Positions 968 to 54,916 of a stretch of DNA of 64,000 bases are shown here, piece after piece. Each line of letters starts with the position of its first letter. Position 1 is the stretch's first letter. The DNA is from a bacterium. Lineage in GTDB: Bacteria; Patescibacteriota; Minisyncoccia; Phycocordibacterales; Phycocordibacteraceae. The stretch is from assembly GCA_021784815.1 (NCBI GenBank), contig JAJYHK010000004.1, positions 16,255 through 80,254 on the forward strand, written 5' to 3'. The notes beneath the pieces are model-generated. The model saw only the letters and a list, made by a program, of their open reading frames with translations. It made no database searches and was not told the DNA's origin. The position numbers and the translations under genes are program-made.

Positions 968-3565
968 ATGGAGAAAAACGCTGCAATACAACTCAGTCAA
1001 CAAGATTTTCTCGCTCAGATCAAATCTTCAACTGACGGCCTGACTTCGAAAGAAGCCGTAAAACGGCTCACAGAAGCCGGGGCGAATATTCTTGGCAAGA
1101 AGAAGGCGAACGCCCTTGCCGTTCTCGCTCGCCAATTCAAAAGTTCGCTCGTCTATCTTCTCATCGCGGCAAGCGCCATTGCGTATTTCATACAAGACGT
1201 CCAGGACGGCACCATCATTCTCGTCATTCTTCTTGTCAACACCGGGCTCGGCTTCTATCAGGAGTACAAATCTGAGCGCATTATCGAGAAGCTCACGCAG
1301 TTCATCACGAAACAGGTGCGCGTAAAGCGCGATGGGCAATTCTCGCTCGTTGACGAATCGCAGGTTGTGCCCGGTGACGTGTTGCAAATGCACGAGGGCG
1401 ATATCGCGTCCGCCGACATGCGCCTTTTCGAAGCAACGGGACTGCAGATCAACGAGTCTCAGCTCACCGGCGAATCGGTACCAGCCGTGAAGCAACCTGC
1501 CGGAGACAGGGTATCGGAAGATAATCTTGTTTTTGCGGGAAGCGTCGTCGAGAAAGGCGAGGGTATCGGCATCGTCTATGCCACCGGCCGGGATACCCAG
1601 CTAGGAGAGATTGCCAAACTTTCAACCGAGACGAAGAAGCAAACGCAGTACGAGAAGTTTCTTCAGTCATTCAGTTCGCAATTGATGCGAGTCATTCTCT
1701 CCGTGCTTGCCCTTGTTTTTGTCGCGAAGCTCTTTCTGACCCACGGCACCTCGAATATCACCGAGCTCCTTCTCTTTATCATCGCTCTTGCGGTCTCAAC
1801 GGTGCCCGAAGTCCTGCCCGTCATCGCGACCGTTACGCTCTCAAGCGGAGCATTGAGGCTTGCCAAAAAGCATGTCGTGGTGAAGCGTCTCTCCGCTATG
1901 GAAGACTTCGGCAATGTGAATCTCCTGTGCACTGACAAGACCGGCACCCTCACGGAAAATAAAATGACCGTGAGCAAGCTCGTCTCTTCGGATGGTGCAT
2001 TATTCCAGAGGTTTGCGTTCGCTTGTATTGCACCCATCAAACACCGCAAGCACCGAACTTCCAATTCATACGACGACGCATTCATCGCATTCGTATCGCC
2101 CGCGCTCCAAAAAGAGGCATCGCGCCTCAGCATTGTGAAAGAGCTGCCGTTCGATCCAGCGGATCGGCGCCGGCGCGTCGTGCTCGAAGACAAGAAGAGC
2201 GGCGAGCATTTTCTGGTCGTGATCGGGGCGCCAGAAGTCTTGTTGCACATAGCTCACACGCCGCAGCATGCGAAGTATCAGCATGATATCTCGCTTGAGG
2301 GTAAAACCGGTCTGCATCATCTGGCGATCGCGTACAAGAAAGTGGCGTACGGCGATGACTTCGATATCTTGAAGAACGAAACAGATCTCTCATTTTTGGG
2401 ATACGTCAGCCTGCTCGATCCGCTGCGGCCGTCTGTGAAAGGCACGATCGCGCGTGCGGCGAAACTCGGTATTAAGATTAAAATACTCACGGGTGATAGC
2501 CGCGAGGTCGCTGAGTATGTCGGCAAAGAAGTCGGACTCATGCAAGAAGGCGGCAAAGTCTACCTCGGCAGCGAGCTTGAGGCGATGCCGGCCGAAGAAT
2601 TCAAGACAGCGGTATTTGACAGCGACATTTTCGCTCGTGTCTCTCCCGAGCAAAAATTCAAGATCATCGAAACGCTCAAAGAGCGGTATACCGTTGCGTA
2701 TCAGGGCGACGGCATCAACGATGCCCCCGCGCTAAAGCTTGCCGACGTGGCGATCGCGGTGAACACAGCGACCGATATCGCCAAAGAGAATGCCGACGTC
2801 GTGCTCCTCAACCGCAGTCTCGAAGTCATTATTGGCGGGATCACGTATGGCCGCTCGATCTTCGTCAACGTAAACAAGTACATCCGGTATACAATGGGCA
2901 ACAACTTCGGCGTTCTCATCGGCCTCTCGGGGCTTTACCTGTTTTCCATCAATCTCCCCATCCTTCCCGTGCAGGCGCTTCTGAACAATCTCCTTGGCGA
3001 TATTCCGCTCGTCATGGTCTCGACGGACACCGTCGAGGACGAGGAGGTGGTCGCGCCGGAGCGGCACAACGTGAAGGAACTCATGTTCATCTCGCTTATA
3101 CTCGGCGTACCGACGGCGCTGTTCGAGATACTGTACTTCGCTCTGATCCGATCGCAGCCGGTCGCGTCCGTGCAGACAAGCCTGTATGTGTTCCTCACGT
3201 TCCAGGCACTCATCATTTTCTTTGCCGTTCGCAACAAAAAACATTTCTGGAAGGCGAAGGCTCCGTCAATGATTCTCGATATTTCATTCGCCCTCGCGTT
3301 TGTTTTCGCGCTCGGCATCATCTATGTGCCGCAGTTTGAAATATGGTTCTCGTTCGTTCCGATTTCCGCAGCAGCCATAGGCACCATCGCTGTCCTCATG
3401 ATGCTTTATTTCATTGCCGTTGATTATGTGAAGACATGGTACTATCGAGCACAAACGCAAATGCCCGAACCCTCGTATATTTCCGGTGTCGCTAGGGTGT
3501 ATACGGACGTGACGAGTGGTTTAATAGGCAGAACCCACCGAGATTCGAACCAACCTCGGAAATAG
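968..3565 (+). CDS. P-type cation-transporting ATPase (HAD-like P-type ATPase)
   Basis: Phosphorylation motif 'CTDKTGTLT' and hinge 'GDGINDAPALKLADVAIAV'; about 10 TM segments. Visibly lower GC than neighbours. The last ~10 codons run into repeat copy B, so the true C-terminus may be earlier. Confidence 0.85.
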   Translation: MEKNAAIQLSQQDFLAQIKSSTDGLTSKEAVKRLTEAGANILGKKKANALAVLARQFKSSLVYLLIAASAIAYFIQDVQDGTIILVILLVNTGLGFYQEYKSERIIEKLTQFITKQVRVKRDGQFSLVDESQVVPGDVLQMHEGDIASADMRLFEATGLQINESQLTGESVPAVKQPAGDRVSEDNLVFAGSVVEKGEGIGIVYATGRDTQLGEIAKLSTETKKQTQYEKFLQSFSSQLMRVILSVLALVFVAKLFLTHGTSNITELLLFIIALAVSTVPEVLPVIATVTLSSGALRLAKKHVVVKRLSAMEDFGNVNLLCTDKTGTLTENKMTVSKLVSSDGALFQRFAFACIAPIKHRKHRTSNSYDDAFIAFVSPALQKEASRLSIVKELPFDPADRRRRVVLEDKKSGEHFLVVIGAPEVLLHIAHTPQHAKYQHDISLEGKTGLHHLAIAYKKVAYGDDFDILKNETDLSFLGYVSLLDPLRPSVKGTIARAAKLGIKIKILTGDSREVAEYVGKEVGLMQEGGKVYLGSELEAMPAEEFKTAVFDSDIFARVSPEQKFKIIETLKERYTVAYQGDGINDAPALKLADVAIAVNTATDIAKENADVVLLNRSLEVIIGGITYGRSIFVNVNKYIRYTMGNNFGVLIGLSGLYLFSINLPILPVQALLNNLLGDIPLVMVSTDTVEDEEVVAPERHNVKELMFISLILGVPTALFEILYFALIRSQPVASVQTSLYVFLTFQALIIFFAVRNKKHFWKAKAPSMILDISFALAFVFALGIIYVPQFEIWFSFVPISAAAIGTIAVLMMLYFIAVDYVKTWYYRAQTQMPEPSYISGVARVYTDVTSGLIGRTHRDSNQPRK

Positions 3566-3627
3566 AATCGCTATGTTTTAAGCCACGAGCGAAGGGGTGA
3601 CTCGAAGCTTTCGTGTCCCTTCGCTCC
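3535..3627. repeat. Type-1 repeat copy B
   Basis: 'ccaccgagattcgaaccaacctcggaaatagaatcgctatgttttaagcc...gagcgaaggg...cccttcgctc' is homologous to copy A. Reverse complement contains GGTTCGAATCTCGGTGGGTTC. Confidence 0.5.
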
Positions 3628-4307
3628 GCGGGAAATTTAAAGTATCGAGTGTTCGACGCGCCTATGTTAAACAGAGTTTACTTAAAGGGCCAATATGGTG
3701 TAGAGTCCATATACATGAACTATCAAAAAGGGTTGGCGGCAATCTGGATGATCGCACTTCTAATCATCGTCATTACGGGGGGCCGCTTATTGGTATTTGA
3801 GCCAGAGCCCAGTACAACCAACAGCTACCTCAACGACAGAATTGCAAACTCAGCAAGCATATCCCTCTCAATCAGGTCAGACTACTCAAGCGCAAACGAA
3901 CGAGCAAAATACGAACGTGCGATCTCAAACTACTACTGAAGTTAATCAGCAGACGAGCGATAATTCGACTTCTCCGACTCCTCAGTCTGTGACAGTTTCA
4001 AACCAAAATGGTCGGATGACCGCGACACCAACGGCTTCTAATACGTGGCAGTTTACTTTCGGCGGTCCGTTTGCAGAACAGCAGCAAAGCTACGTCTTGG
4101 ATTATGGTGACGGCACGTCACAGGTTAGCGTGCAGTGCAAAACCATGGCAACTAACGGCCAACCTGTCTGTAGTCAGCTTGCGCCGCTCACACACACACG
4201 TATTCGAAAGCCGGAACGTATCAGGTCCGGCTGATGGAAACGTTTGTCGGCGTCGGTCCTGGCAACGAACAAACGACCACGTTGCTGACATTGCAAGTGG
4301 CGAATTA
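3613..4307 (+). pseudogene. Disrupted or phase-variable membrane-anchored secreted protein (two compensating frameshifts)
   Basis: Frame 1 encodes a TM anchor 'AAIWMIALLIIVITGG' (3613-3939). Frame 2 carries a 146-codon open Q/T/S-rich linker plus globular part (3764-4234). Frame 1 resumes at 4171-4307 ('YSKAGTYQVRLMETFVGVGPGNEQ...'). The shift windows contain a G6 run (3777-3782) and a (CA)5 run (~4189-4199). Confidence 0.45.
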
Positions 4308-4495
4308 GAATCTTTTTCTGACCGTTCTCCCTCGTTTTGTAACGTCGCCAACTCGCCGGGAAACCCTTGTGGGGCCTGATGGGTTTTGGTTCCTCCTCAC
4401 TAGGCACCTAAATCAATCTGTCAAACAACAAAGGAAAGTGAGATCGTGCCGCTTTCTACCAAGAATTAAAATTAATTTCACAAAGACTTCCTTCT

Positions 4496-4891
4496 ATGGA
4501 TAGAATCGATGTTGCTCAAAATAATCTGGGTGGTGACGAGGGCGGGGAACCTGTCGTAGCATCTACTTACTCGTTTGAGTTCGCGCGCGAAGATTTCGCA
4601 AAACATCGGGAGATAAAAGACAAGCTCCTCAAGGTCTTGTCATATGGGGGGTTCTGCACCTCAACTGTGATAACTGTTCTATCTATTACACTCGTGCTGC
4701 TGTTGCCTACTTTGAGTGAAAGGCCGATGTTTCTGGTGCTCGCTCTTGGTCTTGCAATATGGGTAGCGGCATCTGTGGCAGCTGGAATCGCAGGAGCCGG
4801 GATATTCTACTTTTTTGTGTTTCATCATGTTTCATTACAGAACCGAGATACGGAGACTCACAAAGAAAGAAAGGGCTCTCTATTTTCTTAG
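4496..4891 (+). CDS. Hypothetical membrane protein
   Basis: 131-aa ORF with two hydrophobic segments. A stop-embedded hairpin 'ctctcta-ttttc-ttagagag' lies at 4874-4896. AT-rich island context. Confidence 0.35.
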   Translation: MDRIDVAQNNLGGDEGGEPVVASTYSFEFAREDFAKHREIKDKLLKVLSYGGFCTSTVITVLSITLVLLLPTLSERPMFLVLALGLAIWVAASVAAGIAGAGIFYFFVFHHVSLQNRDTETHKERKGSLFS

Positions 4892-4979
4892 AGAGAAGAA
4901 TCAAGTAAGTACCGTTTCGATATTTTATGCGGCATCCTCGCAGCATAGAACATTTCCTAAAACTCATTTCAATGATAAT

Positions 4980-5098
4980 GGCGAGTGAAAACGGCAAAAA
5001 TCCGTCGGGAGGCTCAATGAGGCCGTTTTAGCGTACCTGAGGTACGGGGAAACGGACGAAGCCGAGCCGCAGCAGGATTTTTGCCGTTTTCACTCGCC
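4980..5098. repeat. Perfect 24-bp inverted repeat flanking a 71-bp spacer (MITE-like or structured RNA element)
   Basis: 'ggcgagtgaaaacggcaaaaatcc' (4980-5003) is the exact reverse complement of 'ggatttttgccgttttcactcgcc' (5075-5098). Inner palindrome 'cgtacctgaggtacg'. Confidence 0.6.
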
Positions 5099-5191
5099 AA
5101 TACATAAAGGAAACGTTTAGCCCCACAAACGAGTTTACTAGCGTTAGGGAGAAGTCCTCTCTAAACCCATAATGTAAGAAAGGGTCATTCT

Positions 5192-5878
5192 ATGGTAGTT
5201 CCACGATGCCTGGTCATCATACCGGATGGAAATCGGAGGTGGGCTCGTTCGCATAATTTGACCCGATCCATAGGCCATGCTCGCGGTCTTGTAAACTGCC
5301 GAACGATAGCTGCTGAAGCTTTTAATCTTGGCGTTGAACACGTTGTCATTTGGGCTGCCTCGGAAGCAAATCTGAAGAACCGCGACTCGCAAGAAATTGC
5401 GAATCTGTTTGTCTTGTTAAAAACCGAGCTAACGTATCGCTCAAAACAAAGAGAAAAGATAGGCGTTCATCTCTGTGGCATATTACAAAAGCAAAATGGG
5501 AGAATCGATACCGAATTTGAAGATCTTGTGAGAGGGGTCCAACAAAGAACCGCACATTTTGATCAGCACCTTACTATACTGTTCGGGTATAGTGGCGTGA
5601 CTGAACTTGTCGTTGCGGCAGAAAAGGCAGCGAAGGAAGGTCCTCCCACCGAGGCGTCCATTCGGAAGCATCTCTGGACCTCCCATTTGCCCGATGTTGA
5701 TCTTTTGATACGTACAGGTGTCGAGGGGGATCCTCATTGGTCCGATTTGCTTCTGCCATGGCAATTACGCAATACGCAGCTCTATTTCAGCGAAGTGTAT
5801 TGGCCAGCGTTCACCGTACAGCACCTCCAGGGAGCATTTGAGGATTATAGCGCGCGTGTTCGTAGAGCGGGCGCTTGA
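5192..5878 (+). CDS. uppS: Undecaprenyl-diphosphate synthase (cis-prenyltransferase)
   Basis: Signature 'IIPDGNRRWA' near the N-terminus; 228 aa. Confidence 0.8.
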   Translation: MVVPRCLVIIPDGNRRWARSHNLTRSIGHARGLVNCRTIAAEAFNLGVEHVVIWAASEANLKNRDSQEIANLFVLLKTELTYRSKQREKIGVHLCGILQKQNGRIDTEFEDLVRGVQQRTAHFDQHLTILFGYSGVTELVVAAEKAAKEGPPTEASIRKHLWTSHLPDVDLLIRTGVEGDPHWSDLLLPWQLRNTQLYFSEVYWPAFTVQHLQGAFEDYSARVRRAGA

Positions 5879-6513: not shown

Positions 6514-8901
6514 ATGCAGGCGGATACTATGGAAGCTCCGAAGGTTGTCGGCGCGCTCGATAATCAGTTCAAGGGGCTGGTGAGCGGGGAGCTTGAGGCG
6601 CTGCGTGAACGGTACGGCTACAACGAGCTTCCGGAATTTCGCGAGAACCCGTTTATACAGTATCTCAAGAATTTCTGGGGCCCGCTCCCGTGGCTCATGG
6701 AGCTCATCGTGGTCGTCACCTATCTGTCGGGCAACCAAGTGGAGGCGTTCATTATCGTGGCGCTACTCCTCGTGAATAGCGGGATCAACCTCGTCCAGCG
6801 CCATTCGGCCGATAGAGCGCTCGCGACGCTGCGCAAGGCGATCGAGGTTACCGCGCGGGTGAAGCGCGATGGCGCGTGGCAGGTCATTGCCGCTCGCGAG
6901 CTCCTCCCGGGAGACGTTGTGCGCCTGCGCGCGGGCGACGTGATGCCAGCCGATGCAACGCTTCTTGAAGGTTCGGTGAGCGTGGACCTTTCTGCGCTCA
7001 CCGGCGAATCGCTGCCGCGGGATCTCGGGGTCGAGGAAAACGCCTACTCCGGCGGCATCGTACGCCGGGGCGAAGCGACGGCCCGCGTAACAGCGACAGG
7101 GAAGCAGACGCGCTACGGGAAGACGACGCAGCTCCTCGAGACGGCCCATCCGCCGACCCATATGGAGAAGATCGTCTTTGCTATCATTCGGTACTTCTTT
7201 CTCATTAACGTGTGCGTGGCGGTCGGCATCACCGTATTCGGCGTGCTTGTCCGCGCGTCGAGTATACAAATCGCCAATTATGACATCGTCCTCCTGCTCA
7301 TGTCGGTACCTGTAGCATTCCCGACGATGTTTATTGTCGCGCAGACCTACGGGGCGCTCCAGCTCGGGGTCGACAGCGGCACAGGCGGCGATACGGGCAA
7401 GCGTGTGCTCACGCGGCGCTTGGGCGCGGTGCAGGAAGCAGCGGTCATGGACGTGCTTTGTAGCGATAAGACCGGCACGCTCACGCTCAATCAGCTCGCG
7501 GTTTCCGCGCTTACCACCTACGGAACCTACGACGAAGCGCGCCTACTCGGTCTCGCATCGGCGGCGAGCGACACGGCCGATAAGGACTCCATCGACCAGG
7601 CTATTTTGGACCGTGCCGCGGAGATAGGCGCCGTCGTTCCGGTACGCGCAAGCTTCACCCCCTTTGATCCCTCGACGAAGCGTACGCACGCTGACGTGAT
7701 GGACGGCAACGTACCGACGGCCGTTGAAAAGGGCCTTGCCGATCTACTGCTTTCTCCCGATGTACGCTACGCGGATGCGGCGTTGTGCGATGTGGCCGAA
7801 CTAAGCACGAGGGGGCTCCGCGTGCTCGCGGTCGTCGTCTCACACGCACAGGTGGGGAAAGAGTGTGCTGGGCTCATTGGCCTCAGTGATCCGATTCGTC
7901 CCGATGCCCCCGCGCTCATTCGCGAGCTCGGCGAGCTCGGCGTGCGGATCGTCATGATTACGGGGGATGGCCGCGTGACCGCCCGCGCGGTCGCACGCGA
8001 ACTTAGTATCGAAGGCGACGTCTACACGGCGGACGAATTGAAGAGGAATCCCGATATAGCGCTCACGGGCGCCGTGTTTGCAGAAGCATATCCCGAAGAT
8101 AAGCTCACGATCATCGAGGCGCTCCAGAGGGCCGGCCACATCGTCGGCATGACAGGCGACGGGGTCAACGATGCACCAGCGCTCCATCGTGCCGAGGTGG
8201 GCATTGCGGTCCTTGGGGCGACCGAGGTTGCCAAGCAGGCGGCGAGCTTTATTTTAACGAGCGGGGGCCTCGAAGGAGTGCGCCGGGTCGTCACCGCGGG
8301 TCGCAGAGTCTATACGAGAATCCACACCTGGGTGCTCAATAAGATCGTTAAATCGATCGAATCGCTCTTCATCGGCACGGTCATTTTCGTACTTACCCAC
8401 TCGTACGTTCTCTCGCCGCTCATTGCCATTCTTATTCTCCTCTCAAACGATTTTGTCACCATATCGCTCGCCGCCGACCACACAAAGCCGATCCGCCGGC
8501 CGGTCCGGTGGAATATCCCTCTTCTGGTTGTAGGATCCTTCGTTATTGCGTTTGTGCCCTACACGTTTACCATGGGTCTCTACCTGCTTGCCCGGCATGA
8601 CGGCTACTCCTTTGCGGTGGTGCGGACCGTGGTGTACGCGTCGCTCATTTATCTCGGCGCAAGCACGGTTCTCGCCGTCCGTGCCTGGCCCTTCGGCTGG
8701 AGCGTGCGGCCAAAAGGAGTCCTCGTCGCTGCGCTCTTGTTTTCGCTCGCGTTCTCGTCGGTTGTTGCGGGGTTCGGCATATTCATCGCGCCGCTGCCTT
8801 TACGATTCTTCCCGTTCGTTATCTTAAGCACTCTCGCGAGCTTCTTCCTCATCGAGCTCGTGAAGCGTATCTCGTTTATTCAGGCGTCCGTGGGGGTTTA
8901 G
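6514..8901 (+). CDS. P-type ATPase (plasma-membrane type, H+/Mg2+-like)
   Basis: 'CSDKTGTLTLNQ' phosphorylation site and 'MTGDGVNDAPALHRAEVGIAV'; 795 aa; high GC like the core genome. Confidence 0.85.
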   Translation: MQADTMEAPKVVGALDNQFKGLVSGELEALRERYGYNELPEFRENPFIQYLKNFWGPLPWLMELIVVVTYLSGNQVEAFIIVALLLVNSGINLVQRHSADRALATLRKAIEVTARVKRDGAWQVIAARELLPGDVVRLRAGDVMPADATLLEGSVSVDLSALTGESLPRDLGVEENAYSGGIVRRGEATARVTATGKQTRYGKTTQLLETAHPPTHMEKIVFAIIRYFFLINVCVAVGITVFGVLVRASSIQIANYDIVLLLMSVPVAFPTMFIVAQTYGALQLGVDSGTGGDTGKRVLTRRLGAVQEAAVMDVLCSDKTGTLTLNQLAVSALTTYGTYDEARLLGLASAASDTADKDSIDQAILDRAAEIGAVVPVRASFTPFDPSTKRTHADVMDGNVPTAVEKGLADLLLSPDVRYADAALCDVAELSTRGLRVLAVVVSHAQVGKECAGLIGLSDPIRPDAPALIRELGELGVRIVMITGDGRVTARAVARELSIEGDVYTADELKRNPDIALTGAVFAEAYPEDKLTIIEALQRAGHIVGMTGDGVNDAPALHRAEVGIAVLGATEVAKQAASFILTSGGLEGVRRVVTAGRRVYTRIHTWVLNKIVKSIESLFIGTVIFVLTHSYVLSPLIAILILLSNDFVTISLAADHTKPIRRPVRWNIPLLVVGSFVIAFVPYTFTMGLYLLARHDGYSFAVVRTVVYASLIYLGASTVLAVRAWPFGWSVRPKGVLVAALLFSLAFSSVVAGFGIFIAPLPLRFFPFVILSTLASFFLIELVKRISFIQASVGV

Positions 8902-10470: not shown

Positions 10471-10495
10471 AACATATTCTCAATACGTTCTCAAT

Positions 10496-10529
10496 ATGGA
10501 ACGCCCGCGCGTGAGCACGGGCGTTCCAT
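10496..10529 (-). terminator. Hairpin terminator downstream of rnpB
   Basis: Perfect palindrome 'atggaacgcccg-cgcgtgagca-cgggcgttccat' immediately 3' of the RNase P RNA on the minus strand. Confidence 0.5.
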
Positions 10530-10532
10530 GGA

Positions 10533-10910
10533 TGTGGATCGAGCCGGTAAGCCGAATTCTGTCTTTTCCGCTACCGTAGTAGTGGACGAGGCGACCATGT
10601 ATCTGGGACGCTGATTGCTCAGCACCTCACGCGGCGCTCCACTATGCGCAGGTGCGCTGTGTGGCTCGGCCTTGCACGACGGTAAGGATTTAGCCGTTTC
10701 ACCCTTCGATTTCGCTTGCGCGTATGCGAAGGCTCTTCCGTTGCCGGAAGCCAGCATGCTTTCGCGTGCCGGCGTCTCTGCTCGCACCTCGCGCCTCGCG
10801 GCGTGCGGGCGTTACCCGCTACCGTACTGTCGGCATCGAAATGATGCCGCTCGTGTTCGGACTTTCCTCTGCGCGGCGTCTCCGCACAGCGGCCGCCTGG
10901 CTCGGTCCGT
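10533..10910 (-). ncRNA. rnpB: RNase P RNA, bacterial type A
   Basis: Minus-strand reading gives 'GAGGAAAGTCCGAAC' (P4 5' strand, universal GGAAAGUCCG) near the 5' end and 'ACAGAATTCGGCTTACCGG' (consensus ACAGAAcCCGGCUUA) near the 3' end. P4 pairs with a bulged U and a GG/CC to AA/UU covariation relative to E. coli. Also 'GGGTAACGCCCG' and 'AAGGGTGAAACGGC' conserved-region matches. P1 from 'GGACCGAGCC' with 'GGCTCGATCC'. Length about 378 nt. Confidence 0.8.
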
Positions 10911-10914
10911 ATAG

Positions 10915-10920
10915 ATTATA
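10915..10920 (-). promoter_or_regulatory. -10 box (TATAAT) for rnpB
   Basis: Perfect TATAAT on the minus strand about 5-7 nt upstream of the inferred rnpB 5' end. Confidence 0.5.
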
Positions 10921-11024
10921 ACACAGAACGACATTTTCTCCATAAACTGTGGACGACGCGCGTACTCGCAAGTGCGAGAGGTATACTGATAGCTATTAGT
11001 ACGTAGTAATTCAAGGTAATTCCC

Positions 11025-13441: not shown

Positions 13442-15121
13442 ATGGTCGGACAGCTTTTGCGGCGCATCACAGCGCCGGTGCGGGGGGTGCATCAAGCAGC
13501 ATACTTGCTCGCCGCACTTACGCTTGCGTCACAGCTCCTCGCGCTCCTGCGCGACCGGACATTCGCCCACGTGTTCGGCGCGGGGCATACACTCGATCTC
13601 TACTACGCCGCTTTCAAGGTGCCTGACCTGGTATTTGCTCTGGTTTCTTCGCTTGTCAGCGCGTACATCCTCATTCCGCGGATCACGTCTGCTTCGCGGG
13701 AAGAAACAGGAGCGCTGCTTTCGCAATCGCTCTCGTTTCTCGTCATCGGGGGAGGACTTATCTGTCTCGTACTGGCAATATTTGCACCGACGCTGCTGTT
13801 TGCCATTTACCCAGAGTTCGCACACGCGCCGCATCGTGCCGGGTTCGTATTGCTTGCGCGCATCCTGCTCGTCCAGCCGCTCCTTCTCGGTGCCTCAGGC
13901 GTACTCGGGAGCGTTACCCAGGTTGAGCGGCAGTTCTTCCTCTTTGCCCTCGCACCGGTGCTCTATAACCTCGGCATCATCTTCGGGACCGTGGCGCTCT
14001 ATCCGCGCTATGGGTTGCCCGGTATCGGCTACGGTGTGGCCGGAGGAGCGGTACTCTACCTTGCGACGAACATTCCGGCGGTCATGCGAGCGCGCCTCAA
14101 GCTTCGGCCCGCATGGCCGAAGCTTGCTGCGATGCTACCGATCGTGAAGGACTCGGTGCCGCGTTCGCTCGCACTCGGCATGGATTCTTTCACGCTCCTC
14201 TTTCTTACCGCGCTTGCGGCAAAGCTCTCAAGCGGCAGCGTCTCTGTTTTCACGCTTGCGGGTAACCTCGAAAACGTACCGCTCTCGCTCATTGGCGGGT
14301 CCTATGCTGTCGCGGCGTTTCCGTCTCTCAGCAAGCATGCGTTTTCCGATCGCGAAGAGTTCGGGCGCGTCCTTTCGAGTAGCGCTCGGCACATCATTCT
14401 TTGGTCGATGGTGCTTCTCGGACTTGTCATTGTACTGCGCGCGTACCTCGTGCGGGTGATTCTCGGCTCAGGAGCATTCGGATGGAGCGCGACGCGGCTT
14501 ACGGCCGCGCTTCTGGCGCTCTTTGTGGCCGGGTTAGCCGCCCAAGGGCTCGTGCTTCTTTTTTCCCGTGCGCTCTATGCCATGAAGCAGTCTTGGCGTC
14601 CGTTTCTCTATCAGCTCGGTGCGGCGCTCTTTACGGCGGCGATCGCGCTCTTTTTCCTCACGCCGCTCTCACGCGCAACCTTTGCACCCTGGCTCGCGCA
14701 CGTGCTCAAGGTTGGCGACACCACAGGAGCTCTTGTTCTTATGCTTGCATTCGCGGCAACCTTGGGCGAGATATTCCTCGCCTCCTGGGCGACTTTTGCC
14801 CTTCGGAAGGCCGTCCCCGGTCTCGCAACGAGCCTCATTCGGCCGCTCGTGCAGGGAACGCTTGCGGCCGTGACCGCGGGCGCCGCGGCGTACGGCGTTC
14901 TCGCGCTTCTTGGCGGAGTAGCGCCGCTCGACACGGTTCGGACGGTCTTCATGAACGGGCTTATCGGGGGCGTGGTCGGGCTCATGGTTGCCGCGCTTGT
15001 GCTCTGGCTCGTGCACAATGCGGAATTCTTCGACATTGTCGCGGCGATACGACGGCTCGCGACGCGGCGTATGCGAACCGATATGCTCGCCCCTTCAGGC
15101 GAGGAGCCGGTGCAGTTTTGA
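13442..15121 (+). CDS. murJ: Lipid II flippase MurJ (MviN family)
   Basis: N-terminal 'LALLRDRTFAHVFGAGHTLDLYYAAFKVPDLVFALVSS' is typical of MurJ; 14 TM-like segments; 559 aa. Confidence 0.75.
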   Translation: MVGQLLRRITAPVRGVHQAAYLLAALTLASQLLALLRDRTFAHVFGAGHTLDLYYAAFKVPDLVFALVSSLVSAYILIPRITSASREETGALLSQSLSFLVIGGGLICLVLAIFAPTLLFAIYPEFAHAPHRAGFVLLARILLVQPLLLGASGVLGSVTQVERQFFLFALAPVLYNLGIIFGTVALYPRYGLPGIGYGVAGGAVLYLATNIPAVMRARLKLRPAWPKLAAMLPIVKDSVPRSLALGMDSFTLLFLTALAAKLSSGSVSVFTLAGNLENVPLSLIGGSYAVAAFPSLSKHAFSDREEFGRVLSSSARHIILWSMVLLGLVIVLRAYLVRVILGSGAFGWSATRLTAALLALFVAGLAAQGLVLLFSRALYAMKQSWRPFLYQLGAALFTAAIALFFLTPLSRATFAPWLAHVLKVGDTTGALVLMLAFAATLGEIFLASWATFALRKAVPGLATSLIRPLVQGTLAAVTAGAAAYGVLALLGGVAPLDTVRTVFMNGLIGGVVGLMVAALVLWLVHNAEFFDIVAAIRRLATRRMRTDMLAPSGEEPVQF

Positions 15122-22519: not shown

Positions 22520-24022
22520 ATGAGTAACGATCGAACCGGGCATCCTTGGCTCGTCCTCCTTACCGTGATGGTGGGGACGCTCCTCATCGGACTCGACCGC
22601 ACGGTCGTAAACCTCGCGGTGCCGAAGATCATCGGTGATTTCGGCATCACGGTAACGACTGCCGCCTGGGTCGCGACGGCGTACATCATCACGAACGCGG
22701 TCTTCGTTCCGGTCTTCGGGAAGCTTGGCGACCTCTTGGGTAATCGTGTCATCTATCTCTGGAGCTTTGTCGGGTTCATCGCCATGTCGGTCTTGAGCGG
22801 GCTCGCATGGAACTTCGGCGCACTCGTATTCTTCCGAGCTCTTCAAGGTCTCGTAGGAGCCGCTGTGTATCCAACTGCGATGTCGCTCATCGCTAAATCA
22901 TTCACCGATACGAAGCAGCGCGCCCAGGCCCTAGGACTCTGGTCGTCTTCCTTTGCGATCTCGGCCGTCATCGGGCCGCTCTTGGGTGGGTACCTCATCG
23001 ATCAGTTTTCCTGGCGCATGGTTTTCTACATCAACTTGCCCATCGGCATTGCCGGGCTCATTATGACGCTCCTCTTCCTGCCGCATGACCGGCCGGAGGA
23101 GCGCGGCCAATTCGACTGGTTTGGCGCGGTGCTCTTGTCGGGCGTCATCTCGACTCTCGTGCTTGTCCTCGATCAGGGACAAACCTGGGGGTGGACTTCG
23201 CAGGCAAGCATCCTCTGTTACGTCATTTCAGCGCTCTTTGGCGTGCTCGTGTACTACTGGGAGACGCGCCACACACGTCCGATCGTCGATTTCCGACTGC
23301 TGAAGAACCCGACGATTGCATCCGTGCTGCTCGTCTCCTTTATCTCTTTCGGCGGTATGATGGGCGCACTTTTCTTATTGCCGGTGTTCGCTCAGTCATT
23401 TTTGGGCTACAACGCGATACAAAGCGGATACCTGTTCCTGCCCATGGGGCTTGCGCTCCCCGTATTTGCGCCGCTCGGCGCTCGGCTCTCGATCCGCTTT
23501 CATCCGCGCTACACGGTTGCGCTCGGCATGCTCGTGGGCGCACTCGGGCTCTACCTGCTTATGAATCTCGATCCGTCCATGTCCATGGGGGATTTCATCC
23601 TGCCGCTCGCGCTTTTTGGCGCCGGCCTCGGGCTCGGTATGGCACCGCTTACGAATGCTGCCACGACGGCCGTGCCGCTCCATGAGGTGGGTATGTCGTC
23701 GGGACTGCTCAACCTGGTGCGTAATGTTGGCGGCGCGTTCGGTATCGCGATATTCGGGACGCTCCTCAACAACACCATCAACCGCAATGTACTCGTCGTA
23801 GCGCAAAACTCGCACGTCAATAGCTACGCGCCCTCGGTCCTTCAGGAAGCGGCGCAGCTTATCATCATGAAAGCGGAGGTGCTCTCGTATGGCGACGTAT
23901 TCCTTTATGGCGCGCTCGCGATGTGCGCGGGCGGCCTCATCGCGCTCTTTTTCTTGAGAGTGAGCGATCAGGTCATCGACCTGTCGCCCGAGATACACGC
24001 CGAAACGATGGCGGGGGGATAG
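22520..24022 (+). CDS. MFS transporter, DHA2 (EmrB/QacA) family
   Basis: 'LDRTVVNLAVPKIIGDFG' and 'FGKLGDLLGNR' motifs; 14 TM; directly follows the two adaptor genes. Confidence 0.8.
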   Translation: MSNDRTGHPWLVLLTVMVGTLLIGLDRTVVNLAVPKIIGDFGITVTTAAWVATAYIITNAVFVPVFGKLGDLLGNRVIYLWSFVGFIAMSVLSGLAWNFGALVFFRALQGLVGAAVYPTAMSLIAKSFTDTKQRAQALGLWSSSFAISAVIGPLLGGYLIDQFSWRMVFYINLPIGIAGLIMTLLFLPHDRPEERGQFDWFGAVLLSGVISTLVLVLDQGQTWGWTSQASILCYVISALFGVLVYYWETRHTRPIVDFRLLKNPTIASVLLVSFISFGGMMGALFLLPVFAQSFLGYNAIQSGYLFLPMGLALPVFAPLGARLSIRFHPRYTVALGMLVGALGLYLLMNLDPSMSMGDFILPLALFGAGLGLGMAPLTNAATTAVPLHEVGMSSGLLNLVRNVGGAFGIAIFGTLLNNTINRNVLVVAQNSHVNSYAPSVLQEAAQLIIMKAEVLSYGDVFLYGALAMCAGGLIALFFLRVSDQVIDLSPEIHAETMAGG

Positions 24023-35197: not shown

Positions 35198-35265
35198 AAT
35201 AGCGAGACTTTACCATCTTTTTTCGTCTTTCGCACCGATTACAAAAATGCTAGAGTGGCATCACT

Positions 35266-35352
35266 GGAGAGGTGGCTGAGTGGTCGAAGGCACCGCACTC
35301 GAAATGCGGCGTCCGGGTAACTGGACCGTGGGTTCGAATCCCACCCTCTCCG
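35266..35352 (+). tRNA. tRNA-Ser (CGA)
   Basis: Acceptor GGAGAGG/CCTCTCC, long variable arm, anticodon loop ctCGAaa, T-arm GTGGGTTCGAATCCCAC. Confidence 0.8.
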
Positions 35353-35395
35353 CCCGAAGACTTTTGTATCGGACAGACCCGAGGGCTTATTATTA
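35350..35395. repeat. Type-2 repeat copy C2 (overlaps tRNA-Ser 3' end; attL-like)
   Basis: 'ccgcccgaagacttttgtatcggacagacccga' begins inside the tRNA-Ser acceptor 3' strand. Confidence 0.6.
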
Positions 35396-36094
35396 TTGCG
35401 CATGGTATTCATGACCGATAATCTCTGGTTTCCGCCGCTAAATGTCATTCATCACTTTCGGGAGTTGGAACGACAGGGCAAATTAGTCCCCGGCAGCAAA
35501 ATCTATCGCAAGGCGGCTGAGGGCTATATAGTTGCCATCTCGCTCATGGGCGTTATGAAGATTCTCGGCAGAGAATTTTGGATGCAACTCGTAAGTGACG
35601 ATGAAGGAAGTCCCGATGTGCGAACTGGTTGTTATGACAAGAAGATTCGTGACAATGACTTCTCGGTTCAAGACGTAGAGGTCGTGACATTCGATGAGCA
35701 TGCTTCAGAAGACAATCTGATTGACTTTTTAATGAACACCAAGCTGGCTCGAAAGAAGTCATATGACGATCAAACGACCATTTTGTGCCATGTGCATAGG
35801 CCAACTTGGGTGCCACCCTACGCGGAACTGCAGGCGTCCCTTGCCAATAAACATCTAACAACAAAAGCACCGGTAATAGTTATCGGTAGGTCTGATCCGA
35901 CCAAGGAGATCTATAAGATGGCGCAAATTTATCCAGCGGTTGATTTGGTGACATCCTTTGACTTAATAGAAGAGTGCCACAAGCATCCGAAGCGGCACAT
36001 ACTTCGTTTAAGAAGATCTGGGAAGCCGACAATTGAGGTCGTATCGAATCCTAAAGAAAAACACTATCCCTTCGAGAAATTAGGCGTGGTCTAA
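35396..36094 (+). CDS. Hypothetical protein (islet cargo)
   Basis: 232-aa ORF in visibly AT-richer DNA between the type-2 repeats; no recognisable motif. Confidence 0.4.
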   Translation: MRMVFMTDNLWFPPLNVIHHFRELERQGKLVPGSKIYRKAAEGYIVAISLMGVMKILGREFWMQLVSDDEGSPDVRTGCYDKKIRDNDFSVQDVEVVTFDEHASEDNLIDFLMNTKLARKKSYDDQTTILCHVHRPTWVPPYAELQASLANKHLTTKAPVIVIGRSDPTKEIYKMAQIYPAVDLVTSFDLIEECHKHPKRHILRLRRSGKPTIEVVSNPKEKHYPFEKLGVV

Positions 36095-36099
36095 TATTG

Positions 36100-36309
36100 T
36101 TATCCGATGGCGACAACCCCTGCTGTGATTTTGAGTTTCGTTTTGAAGCATCCCATCAGCTCGCGCTTCTCTTCATTCGTGCCCTCTTTCAGGATGTACT
36201 TCGCATAGGTGCGCAGGTCGACATCCTCGTGCTTGGCGTCAGATTTGGAGAGACCGAGCACTGTGCGCTGGAATTTATTATGGCGTTTAAGCTCTTCTTT
36301 AAACTTCAT
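36100..36309 (-). CDS. Small Lys/Glu-rich hypothetical protein (islet cargo)
   Basis: 69 aa 'MKFKEELKRHNK...YAKYILKEGTNEEKRELMGCFKTKL'. A truncated paralog lies next to tRNA-Gly. Confidence 0.45.
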   Translation of the reverse strand: MKFKEELKRHNKFQRTVLGLSKSDAKHEDVDLRTYAKYILKEGTNEEKRELMGCFKTKLKITAGVVAIG

Positions 36310-36647: not shown

Positions 36648-36705
36648 CCGCCCGAAGACTTTTGTATCGGACAGACCCGAAGGGCTTATTCTAGGCCGTT
36701 ATTGA
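36648..36705. repeat. Type-2 repeat copy C3 (attR-like), preceded by a degenerate T-loop 'gggttcgagc'
   Basis: Identical 33-nt core then 'agggcttattctaggccgttatt'. Upstream 'aaatgggttcgagcaaacg' resembles a decayed tRNA T-arm. Confidence 0.6.
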
Positions 36706-39462: not shown

Positions 39463-40623
39463 CTACGGCAGGAACTGTTTGAGGAATCCGGTTACGCTCG
39501 CGCGAAAATTCTTTCTCGGCACGGTCGTCTCGCCAGTGAGACCCCAGACCGCAAGACCGTATGCGACCGCCCAGGTTGCGTCGCGCATCTTGGTGTCGAC
39601 CGAAAGCCGTAGTTCCGCAAGGCGTGCAGGCAGCTTCAGGGTGTCTTTTGCAATGTCGCTAATCGAGCCGATGCCTGCACCGCCTCCCGAGATAATGATG
39701 CCCGCAGGCAAGGGACCGCGCTGTCCAAGCGATTTGAGATGACGCGCTATGAGGCCGAAGAGCGCGTTCAGCCGCATCGAAATGATGTCATCAACCTTCT
39801 TGCGCGGGTACATGTGGCCGGTGAGCTTGCCGAGCTTCACGCGCTCCGCTTCCTCGAGTGAAATACGCAGCCCGAGCGCTATGTCATCAGTCACGTGGCT
39901 CGAGCCCATGGGAAACACCTTTATCGAGAAGGGAATGCCTTCGTCATAGACGACGATAGAGACCGTCTCGGCGCCGATATTTGCGAGCACACAGCCCTTC
40001 ATTTTCTGGTCGTTCGTGAGGAGCATGTAGGACCCGGCAAGCGGGGAAGCCATTTGATCGATGACCTCGATATCAGCGTCTTCAACCGCTTCAGTGAGCA
40101 TTTCCTGATGCTGCGTGAGGCAGGTGATGAAGAGGTAATCAGTCTCGAGCTTGACGCCCTTCATGCCGATCGGATCGCCGAGCACGCGCGTACCGTCGAC
40201 GCGGTGCTCGACCGGGATGCTGTGGAGCACGGTACGGTTAAGGAAGCTCGGGGCTGCTGCAGCGCGCGCGGCATGTGCTGCCTTCTCAATGTCAAGGGGG
40301 GTGATTTCCTGATCGGCGCGGCTGATGACCGCCTCGCCGCTTGCGCGGGTTTCGTCGAGTGAGATGCCTCCAATCGCCACAAAGCCCGAGCGGATCGGGA
40401 CTCGTGCGACTGATTCCGCTTGGCGTTTCGCTTCGCGAATACTCGCAGTCACGTCAGCTTTGTCAACCACATAGCCGCCGCGGAGTCCGCGCGATTCGGC
40501 AAGGCCGGTACCGATGATACGCGGATGGCGCCGCGAGGTGCGCGGATCAGTTACCTCTTCAACCACGACCAGTTTGACCTGGGACGTGCCGATATCAATG
40601 CCGGTGGCGATGCGTCGGGACAT
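39463..40623 (-). CDS. ftsA: Cell division protein FtsA
   Basis: Actin-fold 'IATGIDIGTSQVKLVVVE'; gene order ftsA-ftsZ. Start at MSRRIATG; the ORF-track start overlaps ybeY. Confidence 0.85.
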   Translation of the reverse strand: MSRRIATGIDIGTSQVKLVVVEEVTDPRTSRRHPRIIGTGLAESRGLRGGYVVDKADVTASIREAKRQAESVARVPIRSGFVAIGGISLDETRASGEAVISRADQEITPLDIEKAAHAARAAAAPSFLNRTVLHSIPVEHRVDGTRVLGDPIGMKGVKLETDYLFITCLTQHQEMLTEAVEDADIEVIDQMASPLAGSYMLLTNDQKMKGCVLANIGAETVSIVVYDEGIPFSIKVFPMGSSHVTDDIALGLRISLEEAERVKLGKLTGHMYPRKKVDDIISMRLNALFGLIARHLKSLGQRGPLPAGIIISGGGAGIGSISDIAKDTLKLPARLAELRLSVDTKMRDATWAVAYGLAVWGLTGETTVPRKNFRASVTGFLKQFLP

Positions 40624-52015: not shown

Positions 52016-53328
52016 AAAAACTCACGACCTTCAAAATCGTCCTTTTCGCGTTTTTTATCGTCGGCGCGCTTGCAGGGCTCGTTGCGTTTTCGCTTTATCA
52101 AGGCGGCAGTTCCGGTGCAAAAGGCGTAGGAACGGTCGTCATTTGGGGTACGCTGCCGCAAGCCAGCATGGATGCCACGCTGCAGGCCGCGAAACAGAGC
52201 GATCAAAGTCTCAAGGGCGTGTCCTACGTAGAGAAGAATCCCGCAACGCTCGCGGCGGACCTCGCGACTGCGATCGCCACGGACAACGCGCCGGGCCTTG
52301 TGCTTGCGTCGCAACAGGAGCTCTACTCGATCCACCGGTTTCTCGCGTCTATCCCGCTCTCCTCGCTTCCGGTGAGCACGTTTGAGAATACGTTCATTAG
52401 CGAAGGGAATCTGTTCCGTGTGCCGAATAACGGCGGCTATTATGGGATGCCGTTCCTCGTCGATCCGCTCGTGCTGTTTTCAAATAACGCTATTCTTGCA
52501 TCGGACAATATTGCGCTCCCGCCCTCAACCTGGGATGCGCTCACCGGGCTCGTGCCAAACGTTGCGGTGTACTCGTCGACTCGGCAGGTTACGCGCGGGC
52601 TGATTGCTCTCGGCTCGTACGATAACGTGCAAAATGCGCAAGCAATCATTTCCGCGATCCTGCTTCAAGAAGGAGTATCAGTAACGGCGTATGGCGGGGC
52701 CGGGAATGTGGTGGCGAACCTGAACGAATCACAGGGAGCGAGCGGCCAGCTGCCCGGAGAGGCGGCAGTGCGCTTTTACACGCAGTTCGCCGACCCGTCG
52801 AAGGTCTCGTACACTTGGAACCAGTCGATGCCGAACTCACAGCAAGCATTTTCCTCGGGCGACCTCGCGCTCTACCTTGGTTTCGCCTCCGAGGCGAGCT
52901 ACTTCACGAGTGCGAATCCGAATCTTGCGTTTACCGTGTCGCCGCTTCCGCAGCTTGCGGGTGCCGCGACAAAAACGACGTACGGGAAGCTCTATGCATT
53001 CATGGTTCCGCGCGCAAGTCCGAACATCGCGGGCGCGTATGCCGCCGCGTCAGCACTCATCGGTATCTCCGATGAAAAGGCCGCCGCGGTAGCGACAGGA
53101 TTAGCGCCGGCGGTCCGACAGGTACTCGCGAGCGCGTCGGCGCAAGACCCTGTTGCCGCCGTCGCCTATGCGTCGGCGCTCTATGCCGCGGGGTGGCTTT
53201 CCCCAGCTCCTGCCGACACTGACCGGGTCTTTTCGGCTATGATTACGAGTGTGCTGAACGGCAGCGCTACCTTTGCGACCGCGGTGAGTACGGCGCAATC
53301 CTCGCTCAACGCGCTGCTCCAATCATGA
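52012..53328 (+). CDS. Extracellular solute-binding-protein-like (SBP family 1-like), membrane-anchored, orphan
   Basis: N-terminal TM 'IVLFAFFIVGALAGLVAF', then 'VVIWGTL...GYYGMPFLVDPLVLFSN' resembling ABC sugar-binding proteins. No permease or ATPase nearby. 4-nt overlap with the flanking genes. Confidence 0.45.
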   Translation: MKKLTTFKIVLFAFFIVGALAGLVAFSLYQGGSSGAKGVGTVVIWGTLPQASMDATLQAAKQSDQSLKGVSYVEKNPATLAADLATAIATDNAPGLVLASQQELYSIHRFLASIPLSSLPVSTFENTFISEGNLFRVPNNGGYYGMPFLVDPLVLFSNNAILASDNIALPPSTWDALTGLVPNVAVYSSTRQVTRGLIALGSYDNVQNAQAIISAILLQEGVSVTAYGGAGNVVANLNESQGASGQLPGEAAVRFYTQFADPSKVSYTWNQSMPNSQQAFSSGDLALYLGFASEASYFTSANPNLAFTVSPLPQLAGAATKTTYGKLYAFMVPRASPNIAGAYAAASALIGISDEKAAAVATGLAPAVRQVLASASAQDPVAAVAYASALYAAGWLSPAPADTDRVFSAMITSVLNGSATFATAVSTAQSSLNALLQS

Positions 53329-53837
53329 ACCCTCTCAATTTCCAGCTCCAGTGCTATCGCGCAAGAGCGCTTGTCTCCCTCCTGGCCGGTCTGCTGTTTT
53401 TGGTCATTCTTATTCCACACTTGGCTTTCGCTGCGGTGTCGAATACTAATACTAACGGAACTCCCGTGAATTCCCCGACCTACGGAGGAACAAACGGAAT
53501 GCCCATGTCTAATCCTGGTCAAGGCGGGGGAGGGTCATACTCATTTCCCAATCCGCTCGGCCAAGGGACAACACTCACGACGCTCCTTATGGATATCTTG
53601 AACCTCGTCATGCAGCTCGGCACGGTCGCGGTCATCCTCATGCTCGTATATACCGGTTTCAAATACGTCGCTGCACGGGGCAACCCGGGGGCGATCACAA
53701 GTGCACATCAGGCGCTCGCGTGGACCGTGGTTGGTGCGCTCATTCTGCTCGGCTCCGCAGCGATTGCGCAAGGTATCTGCGCCACGGTTGTCGCCCTTGG
53801 CAACGGTTCCGGCAGCTGTCCTTCGCTCCTGCCATGA
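53325..53837 (+). CDS. Pilin-like paralog 1 (signal peptide + Gly/Asn-rich region + two TM helices)
   Basis: Signal peptide 'LLAGLLFLVILIPHLAFAA', then 'LVMQLGTVAVILMLVYTGFKYVAARGNPGAITSAHQALAWTVVGALILLGSAAIA'. Same TM-loop-TM architecture as paralogs 2-6. Confidence 0.5.
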   Translation: MNPLNFQLQCYRARALVSLLAGLLFLVILIPHLAFAAVSNTNTNGTPVNSPTYGGTNGMPMSNPGQGGGGSYSFPNPLGQGTTLTTLLMDILNLVMQLGTVAVILMLVYTGFKYVAARGNPGAITSAHQALAWTVVGALILLGSAAIAQGICATVVALGNGSGSCPSLLP

Positions 53838-54106
53838 TAACGTTCGCACAGCTTGTCGGATCGGGTACCACGGGCATCATCGGCCTTATTAATGTCGTAG
53901 TCATCCCCGTTATCTTCACACTTGCCTTTGCCGCATTCATTTGGGGCGTCGTGAACGCGTTTATCTTGCACGGCGGTGACGGTACCACGCAAAAGAAGGG
54001 CCGCGATGTGGCGCTCTGGGGTCTCATTGGTCTCGTGCTGCTTTTTTCCATCTGGAGCGTCGTGAACATCCTTTTATCCACGGTTGGCATCGTGCCTGGC
54101 AGCTAG
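53834..54106 (+). CDS. VirB2/T4SS-pilin-like small membrane protein, paralog 2
   Basis: 'GIIGLINVVVIPVIFTLAFAAFIWG...HGGDGTTQKKGRDVALWGLIGLVLLFSIWSVVNILLS' (two TM helices, basic Gly loop). Confidence 0.55.
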   Translation: MITFAQLVGSGTTGIIGLINVVVIPVIFTLAFAAFIWGVVNAFILHGGDGTTQKKGRDVALWGLIGLVLLFSIWSVVNILLSTVGIVPGS

Positions 54107-54125
54107 CTCTGCTATCGTTAGGTAT

Positions 54126-54578
54126 ATGTATTTTCCTACTCCATTCACTTTCGGCGGTTGCTTCACTGGGATCTGCTATATGAGTAACCTCATTGTTGGC
54201 ACTATCAACAATGTGCTCGTTCCGGTTATATTCGCGATAGCTTTTATTGTCTTCTTGTGGGGCATTGCGAATGCGTACGTGATTTCTCGCGGCAATGAAG
54301 CAAAAGTAAAACAGGGCCATCAGCTTATTTTGTGGGGTCTCGTCGGTTTCTTTTTTATGCTCTCGATATGGGGTCTCGTAAACATCATTGCGAATACGTT
54401 CGGTATCTCCGGCGGTCCCGGACCTCCGACTCCAGTCTACTTCCCCTATACATACGGACAGTCGCCGGTGTATCCCGGGTACTCAAGCCCTACCCCAGGT
54501 GCATATAATTCCACGCCAAATACAAATCCCGCTCCATCAACCGCAGCTCCTAGTAGTGTAAGTCCCGGGGTACTATGA
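54126..54578 (+). CDS. VirB2/T4SS-pilin-like small membrane protein, paralog 3 (Pro/Tyr/Ser-rich C-terminal tail)
   Basis: 'NNVLVPVIFAIAFIVFLWG...SRGNEAKVKQGHQLILWGLVGFFFMLSIWGLVNIIAN' then 'PGPPTPVYFPYTYGQSPVYPGYSSPTPG...'. Start uncertain: 54126 has an AGG SD; 54180 is the alternative. Confidence 0.55.
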   Translation: MYFPTPFTFGGCFTGICYMSNLIVGTINNVLVPVIFAIAFIVFLWGIANAYVISRGNEAKVKQGHQLILWGLVGFFFMLSIWGLVNIIANTFGISGGPGPPTPVYFPYTYGQSPVYPGYSSPTPGAYNSTPNTNPAPSTAAPSSVSPGVL

Positions 54579-54613
54579 CAGTACATTGCTTTCAAGCACT
54601 TAATTAACTCTGT

Positions 54614-54916
54614 ATGAGTAGCGGCATAAATATCCCCTATATCCAGAGCTGGGCAGGAGGCATCATTGGGCTCATAAATTACGTGCTGATCCCGGTACTC
54701 CTTGCCATTGCGTTCTTTGTTTTCTTGCTCGGGGTTCTGCGTGCCTATATTTTCTCGAGAGGCGATGCTAAAGCGCGAGAGAGTGGTCATCAGCTTGTCC
54801 TTTGGGGTGCTGTCGGTTTTACTATCGTGCTTTCGGTCTGGGGTCTCGTCGCGCTGGTTGGCTCGACCTTCGGGCTTATCTCGGGCGGCGCGGCGCCGCC
54901 CTACCCGACGCTCTAG
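54614..54916 (+). CDS. VirB2/T4SS-pilin-like small membrane protein, paralog 4
   Basis: 'GGIIGLINYVLIPVLLAIAFFVFLLG...SRGDAKARESGHQLVLWGAVGFTIVLSVWGLVALVGS'. Confidence 0.55.
   Translation: MSSGINIPYIQSWAGGIIGLINYVLIPVLLAIAFFVFLLGVLRAYIFSRGDAKARESGHQLVLWGAVGFTIVLSVWGLVALVGSTFGLISGGAAPPYPTL

Follow-up and report, generated by a model that had tools for sequence, protein, structure and literature searches.

The window, which is the whole 64-kb stretch of DNA analysed here, carries at 3715..4308 of the forward strand a gene for a membrane-anchored protein that changes reading frame twice. When homologues are searched against the window copy with tblastn, three frame segments are recovered from this interval. 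The features of the locus are as follows.

3715..4308, forward strand: the whole disrupted gene (probable pseudogene); the repaired 196-aa ORF aligns over its full length with the intact protein P0001 and its relatives.
3715..3781, forward strand: segment 1, frame 1, carrying the ATG and the larger part of the N-terminal TM helix (MNYQKGLAAIWMIALLIIVITG); the beginning of P0001 (MNYRKG...) is homologous.
3777..3782, forward strand: G6 homopolymer, the +1 insertion site; an in-frame G5 reads ATT ACG GGG GCC GCT (ITGAA).
3782..4198, forward strand: segment 2, frame 2, supported by three-frame translation, homologue alignment and a Pfam PKD match (E 1e-4).
3937..3939, forward strand: premature TGA in frame 1, which reduces the present gene to a 74-aa stub.
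4189..4198, forward strand: (CA)5 repeat, the +2 insertion site; an in-frame (CA)4 reads CTC ACA CAC ACG TAT (LTHTY).
4198..4308, forward strand: segment 3, frame 1, encoding the final two beta-strands of the PKD-like domain (TYSKAGTYQVRLMETFVGVGPGNEQTTTLLTLQVAN) and ending in the TAG at 4306-4308.
4232..4234, forward strand: TGA that ends the frame-2 reading past the (CA)5 shift, from three-frame translation.

In the three-frame translation of 3613-4310, frame 1 is open from the ATG at 3715 (MNYQKGLAAIWMIALLIIVITGG...) and ends at the TGA at 3937-3939. Frame 2 reads ...GAAYWYLSQSPVQ...LAPLTHTRIRKPERIRSG up to the TGA at 4232-4234; its stretch ...GAAYWYLSQSPVQPTATSTTELQ...NTWQFTFGGPFAEQQQSYVLDYGDGTSQVSVQCKTMATNGQPVCSQLAPLTHT passes into RIRKPERIRSG before that stop. 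The frame 1 reading is then regained (...HTYSKAGTYQVRLMETFVGVGPGNEQTTTLLTLQVAN) and continues to the TAG at 4306-4308. Segment 2 completes the TM helix and goes on through a Q/T/S-rich linker into a PKD-like domain, of which it holds the first three quarters, including two conserved Cys residues and the LDYGDG motif. The C-terminus encoded by segment 3 (FVGVGPGNE...N, followed by the stop) is conserved in all homologues in the alignment.

This structure agrees with a preliminary description of the DNA, in which one gene for a TM-anchored, surface-type protein passes from frame 1 to frame 2 and back to frame 1; the repaired ORF is matched end to end by intact homologues. Some of the boundaries given there are different. 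The gene does start in frame 1, at the ATG at 3715 as judged by homology and not at the GTG at 3613. The frame-2 part, put at 146 codons, comprises 139 codons between the shift sites (the frame-2 ORF from the TTG at 3797 encodes 145 aa), and the final frame-1 part, put at about 35 codons, has exactly 36.

Between 3600 and 4320, homopolymers of at least five nucleotides are limited to A5 (3725-3729), G6 (3777-3782) and T5 (4313-4317), and the only dinucleotide repeat of at least four units is the (CA)5 at 4189-4198. Removal of one G and one CA unit yields an unbroken ORF of 196 codons. The repaired protein consists of a TM anchor, the Q/T/S-rich linker and a PKD-like beta-sandwich.

Frame 1 contains eight stop codons between the two shift sites, so the net shift of +3 rescues no protein. 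Such a rescue is rejected on this ground, as are an alternative genetic code and read-through. The product of the present sequence is 74 aa long and lacks the PKD domain. The two frameshifts had been described as compensating; with frame 1 blocked in this way, the compensation is arithmetic without functional meaning, and a second slip, if it falls in a dinucleotide repeat, has about an even chance of bringing back the original frame. A mis-call as three ORFs had also been expected. Public gene annotation instead gives the N-terminal stub alone, at 74 aa or, from an upstream ATG, 91 aa, and the remainder is uncalled.

Among 5.8 billion protein clusters, the repaired protein has three intact matches. 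P0001 (187 aa) is 60% identical with 100% query coverage (E 1e-59), and P0002 (262 aa) and P0003 (164 aa) are 73-77% identical over the domain. The full 286-aa form of P0003 is found in the JGI locus L006, which is the single extra intact homologue in a scan of JGI metagenomes for the family. A family profile searched against 1.84 billion representatives recovers only 52 proteins at E<=1e-3, which marks the family as rare, and the distant profile matches are bona fide multi-PKD proteins. A scan of GTDB genomes with peptide patterns of the family finds no relative among the species representatives. The source species and the family are thus absent from the GTDB species representatives.

The alignment with the homologues is continuous over both junctions. 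IAGAAYWYL in the homologues corresponds to ITG/AAYWYL in the window copy, and LAPLTHTYT corresponds to LAPLTH/TYS (TYSKAG), the slash marking the change of frame. Since the alignment crosses both sites, each frame change is confined to its own tract. The list of tracts between 3600 and 4320 bears out the earlier statement that G6 and (CA)5 are the sole simple tracts at the switches. In the DNA alignment, the ortholog L001 has ATCGCTGGTGCGGCT at the position of G6, without a G-run, and the homologues have CTCACTCACACTTAT, CTCACCCACACCTAC and CTGACGCATAAGTAC at the position of (CA)5. The same amino acids are encoded by repeat-free codons (GCTGGTGCG; CTCACTCACACT and others). Neither a G-run nor a CA repeat of at least four units occurs at the shift sites in L001, L002, L003 and L006, and all family members checked lack homopolymers of at least six nucleotides and dinucleotide repeats of at least four units. 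The preliminary description had proposed a comparison of orthologs, which might have been split likewise. The homologues are intact, all are encoded in a single frame, and they do not carry the two tracts. No further stop interrupts the repaired protein, in which 61 of the 64 positions invariant among the three intact homologues are retained, more than in any intact homologue in a leave-one-out comparison.

The repaired window protein matches Pfam PKD (PF00801) with E 1e-4 and 22.6 bits, just under the cut-off of 23.5. Three homologues score above this cut-off (P0002, 24.3; P0003, 25.8; P0128, 27.6). In the AlphaFold model of the ortholog P0001, a helix (10-31) is followed by a disordered region (33-74) and a beta-sandwich (84-185; pLDDT about 75-93). 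The top Foldseek matches of this model in the PDB are PKD domains (4l9d, 2y72, 6aem and 4aqo), with the best folds belonging to PrtV, ColG, Epp and an archaeal S-layer protein. Target-normalised TM scores of the top matches range from 0.65 to 0.77 (0.77 for 4l9d and 0.71 for 2y72), and the E-values are modest (3e-3 to 1e-2). A sequence search of the PDB returns just a weak match to the PKD domain of ColH (E 0.77), and the NCBIfam matches are all sub-threshold and are due to the TM segment and the linker. The profile matches and the model support a surface protein that combines a TM anchor and a PKD-like domain as the predicted product.

The gene lies in a stretch at about 3200-5800 with a GC content of 43-50%, against a window mean of 58%. 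This stretch holds the tail of an ATPase gene, the disrupted gene, an orphan TM protein and an undecaprenyl-diphosphate synthase gene. The orphan TM protein (4496-4891, 131 aa) has no Pfam match and is called as a gene in a Logan assembly only. Two P-type cation ATPases are encoded within 6 kb of each other, at 968-3565 (865 aa) and 6514-8901 (795 aa). The first is annotated as Mg2+-importing in the JGI relatives, and no other public protein exceeds 78% identity to it. The closest relatives of this first ATPase (76-78% identity) have no PKD gene beside the ATPase. The L006/L003 homologue directly follows a tRNA-Ser(TGA), and the L001 homologue adjoins a tRNA-His. The gene behaves as a rare accessory gene of a kind that is readily lost. 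A scan of the locus for promoters and terminators is uninformative.

The window is otherwise dense with intact housekeeping genes, which encode LepA, MurJ, a class I tRNA synthetase, TsaD, GyrA, S1, IF-2, FtsZ, FtsA, RbfA, a ClpB-like protein, RNase P RNA and ten tRNAs. GyrA is 81% identical to GyrA of Candidatus Paceibacterota MAGs, and its best matches are all from Patescibacteria/Parcubacteria. The bacterial class A RNase P RNA (10532-10908, reverse strand) scores 100.2 bits against an Rfam gathering score of 100. A score barely at the threshold indicates a divergent, CPR-type RNase P RNA. The gap at 10471-11024 was considered as a split gene and rejected, as the RNase P RNA lies there. The interval 53325-54916, with reading in frames 3, 2 and 3, was likewise considered as a frameshifted gene and rejected. 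It holds four separate tandem genes for small membrane proteins in alternating frames, which match T4SS_pilin/TrbC (PF18895, PF04956). Tandem genes of this T4SS-pilin-like type fit a CPR bacterium.

Several repeats are associated with tRNA genes. A direct repeat of about 131 nt (92% identity) occurs at 812-942 of the window and at 2435-2623 of L087, about 3.7 kb upstream of the window start. The upstream copy starts within a tRNA-Ser(GGA), and the window copy has a degenerate tRNA 3' end. The pair flanks MFS, MarR, ABC-transporter and isochorismatase genes and resembles the attL/attR of a tRNA-Ser island. The core of the same repeat (CCGCCCGAAGACTTTTGTATCGGACAGACCCGA) is present at 35350-35391 and 36648-36703, 1.3 kb apart, and the first of these overlaps the 3' end of a tRNA-Ser(CGA) (35265-35355). 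Between the two cores are ORFs at 35396-36094 (232 aa) and 36100-36309 (reverse strand) with no Pfam match, and the bracketed stretch may be a remnant of an integrated element. The ATPase ORF contains, in its 3' tail at about 3530-3560, a fragment that resembles the T-arm of a tRNA (GAGATTCGAACC). ARAGORN and Rfam both give no tRNA at about 3545; the resemblance may be fortuitous, or the fragment may be what is left of a decayed tRNA or att site.

The identical G6/(CA)5 allele is present, at 100% identity, in four public assemblies, whose independence is suggested by their distinct accessions only and which may share one study or partly the same reads. These are:

ENA ERZ27236914, contig k141_1095593, 53.8 kb, 100% identical over 13.9 kb.
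Logan SRR13178631, 4.1 kb, with the G6/(CA)5 allele.
ENA ERZ27233564, contig k141_719068, 1.3 kb, with the G6/(CA)5 allele.
An NCBI contig of 81,363 nt, a listed source of P0004 and P0124, with the G6/(CA)5 allele.

The k141 names of the two ENA contigs presumably denote MEGAHIT short-read assemblies. A literature search finds no paper on SRR13178631. The exact G5/(CA)4 and G5/(CA)5 products are absent from a collection of 15 billion proteins. No near-identical product of the G5 or G8 type is found in the homology search, where the nearest relatives are 60-77% identical.

The gene is probably a recent pseudogene of an uncultured Paceibacterota (Parcubacteria, CPR) bacterium, produced by two slippage frameshifts. 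Intact homologues are colinear with it over both changes of frame, and a premature stop removes its domain. The product of the ancestral gene would have been a bitopic surface protein, anchored by an N-terminal TM segment and carrying one PKD-like domain of Ig fold on a disordered, Q/T/S-rich stalk. One slippage event would then have inserted a G (G5 to G6) within the codons of the TM helix, and an independent one would have inserted a CA unit ((CA)4 to (CA)5) where the PKD domain has its HTY motif. A ribosome that starts at the ATG at 3715 would now stop after 74 residues and leave the PKD domain unmade. The second lesion was most likely neutral, arising after the first, in either order. The lesion appears recent because the repaired protein has no other stop and the invariant positions are so well kept. 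Substitutions since inactivation would be invisible, as there is no close intact reference. The anatomy of the gene, its homology over both junctions, the recurrence of the allele and the lack of conserved tracts are direct observations; slippage as the mutational mechanism, loss of function and fixation in the population are inferred. Two slippage insertions with no other visible damage are slightly unexpected for random decay. An otherwise pristine gene for a surface protein, with both lesions at repeats, is also what a contingency locus in its OFF phase looks like.

The preliminary description took the gene for a slipped-strand, phase-variable locus. Its G and CA tracts would switch a surface PKD protein through frequent, reversible changes in length, and the sampled populations would be OFF at both. 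The lesions are indeed of the slippage type. Both lie exactly at the simple-sequence tracts of a gene that is otherwise undamaged (the 61 of 64 positions above), and its product is membrane-anchored and of a surface type. Tract length also decides whether the ORF is open, as a full-length ORF is obtained in silico only from G5 or G8 combined with (CA)4 or (CA)7. In a screen of Neisseria (N. meningitidis) with minimum lengths of six for homopolymers and five for dinucleotides, G6 and (CA)5 would just pass, and a C5/C6 polymorphic tract has been reported in Neisseria (PMC5084427). The present lengths are at that minimum, however, and the ON state of G5/(CA)4 is below it. G/C tracts of fewer than seven nucleotides, variable by a single unit, are weak candidates in the same screen (PMC5084427).

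The wider comparison also speaks against a phase-variable locus. The tracts are unconserved in the homologue DNA, and the family is without long repeats. In the window, G/C runs of at least six nucleotides are rarer than expected (10 observed against 17.7, the longest being six), and dinucleotide repeats of at least five units are at expectation (3 against 3.7). All four assemblies, possibly from shared data, are OFF at both tracts, no alternative allele is found in public protein collections, and the ON state would need two simultaneous reversions. With tracts that are short, unconserved and not enriched, an evolved contingency switch is not supported by the sequences compared, and a true phase-variable locus has only a small chance of being correct. 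In a narrower version, the two short repeats would serve a CPR episymbiont as reversible switches with a low threshold and control a surface protein that contacts the host. A CPR lineage with weak mismatch repair might render even G5/G6 and (CA)4/(CA)5 unstable. This version is improbable; if it were true, the Candidate Phyla Radiation would gain its first described simple-sequence contingency gene. Length heterogeneity in reads, if real, would likewise point to phase variation in a group without a described case, and it has no support here.

The preliminary description gave uncorrected homopolymer error as the alternative, in which case the real genome would have G5 and (CA)4 and an intact gene. 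Homopolymers and short tandem repeats are classical sites of indel error, the repaired ORF is perfect, and all public assemblies could stem from the same reads. Against this, the four assemblies, from at least three pipelines, agree at every base, and a two-base CA insertion is atypical as a platform error. The window contains nine other G6/C6 runs, five of which are in genes that keep full-length Pfam matches (MurJ, an MFS transporter, FtsZ, FtsA and RbfA), and two (GC)5/(CG)5 repeats lie inside unbroken ORFs. Tracts of these kinds include G6 at 4646, 13482-13487, 24013-24018 and 40296-40301, C6 at 38088 and (GC)5 at 59382-59391. No other convincing split gene is found across the window by codon-usage scoring and gap analysis. 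As the other tract-bearing genes are intact, a general problem of indel error in the window is excluded. An artefact at precisely these two sites is unlikely, and we regard a sequencing or assembly error as the explanation of the split gene as highly improbable.

Programmed recoding is essentially excluded. Ribosomes would have to move by +1 at GGG_G and by -1/+2 within the CA repeat to make the full-length protein from the present sequence. Re-pairing of the tRNAs is possible in principle (GGG to GGG at +1; ACA to ACA at +2), and a 7-bp GC-rich hairpin (GCCGGA...UCCGGC, 4209-4230; z = -1.8, marginal) begins in the coding sequence 11 nt downstream of the CA tract. Against this, the sequence downstream of the first site shows no structure (z = -0.36), an X_XXY_YYZ heptamer is lacking, and the G site has neither a slow codon nor a stop codon. 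Two inefficient shifts, both needed for one product, would leave almost none of it. The homologues, all in a single frame, have neither the tracts nor the hairpin sequence.

The split gene, probably a double-frameshift pseudogene formed by slippage, is a real but ordinary finding, and its chief value is the correction of the annotation. An annotation of the locus should show a single frameshifted pseudogene, for a PKD-like protein with a TM anchor, in place of a hypothetical protein of 74 aa and an empty stretch after it. The locus would also provide a small documented example of repeat slippage inactivating accessory surface-protein genes in CPR bacteria.

The predicted protein can be compared with PKD surface and secreted proteins (PF00801/PF18911), such as PrtV of V. 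cholerae (4l9d) and ColG of C. histolyticum (2y72). Common to both are LDYGDG, HTYxxxGxYxVxL and the beta-sandwich. The window protein differs from these in that its PKD-like domain is divergent, occurs once and is borne by a TM anchor and stalk; it also has an additional Cys pair and insert (QCxT..GQPVC).

In the contingency loci of Neisseria, Haemophilus, Campylobacter and Helicobacter, a G tract or dinucleotide repeat in a surface-protein gene likewise toggles the frame by its length. The tracts of known loci are typically longer and over-represented, whereas those of the window gene are minimal, unconserved and non-polymorphic in the available data. Contingency loci usually have one tract per gene; the window gene needs two reversions. 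A candidate counts as strong when differences in tract length have been documented both between strains and within them (PMC5084427).

A further comparison is with insect endosymbionts. The shared elements are a reduced-genome, symbiont-type bacterium and a homopolymer frameshift in an otherwise conserved gene. In Buchnera and Blochmannia, frameshifts in poly(A) tracts are rescued by transcriptional slippage at A/T runs of about nine or more. To our knowledge, neither a G6 run nor a (CA)5 repeat is a substrate for efficient slippage by RNA polymerase.

The closest likeness is to the slippage frameshift pseudogenes of bacterial genomes. In these, as here, single-unit insertions at a mono- or dinucleotide repeat lead to a premature stop in a well-preserved sequence, with intact homologues elsewhere and a location in an accessory, low-GC region. 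Nothing essential differs in the window gene, which is distinguished by its CPR host and by two lesions that sum to +3.
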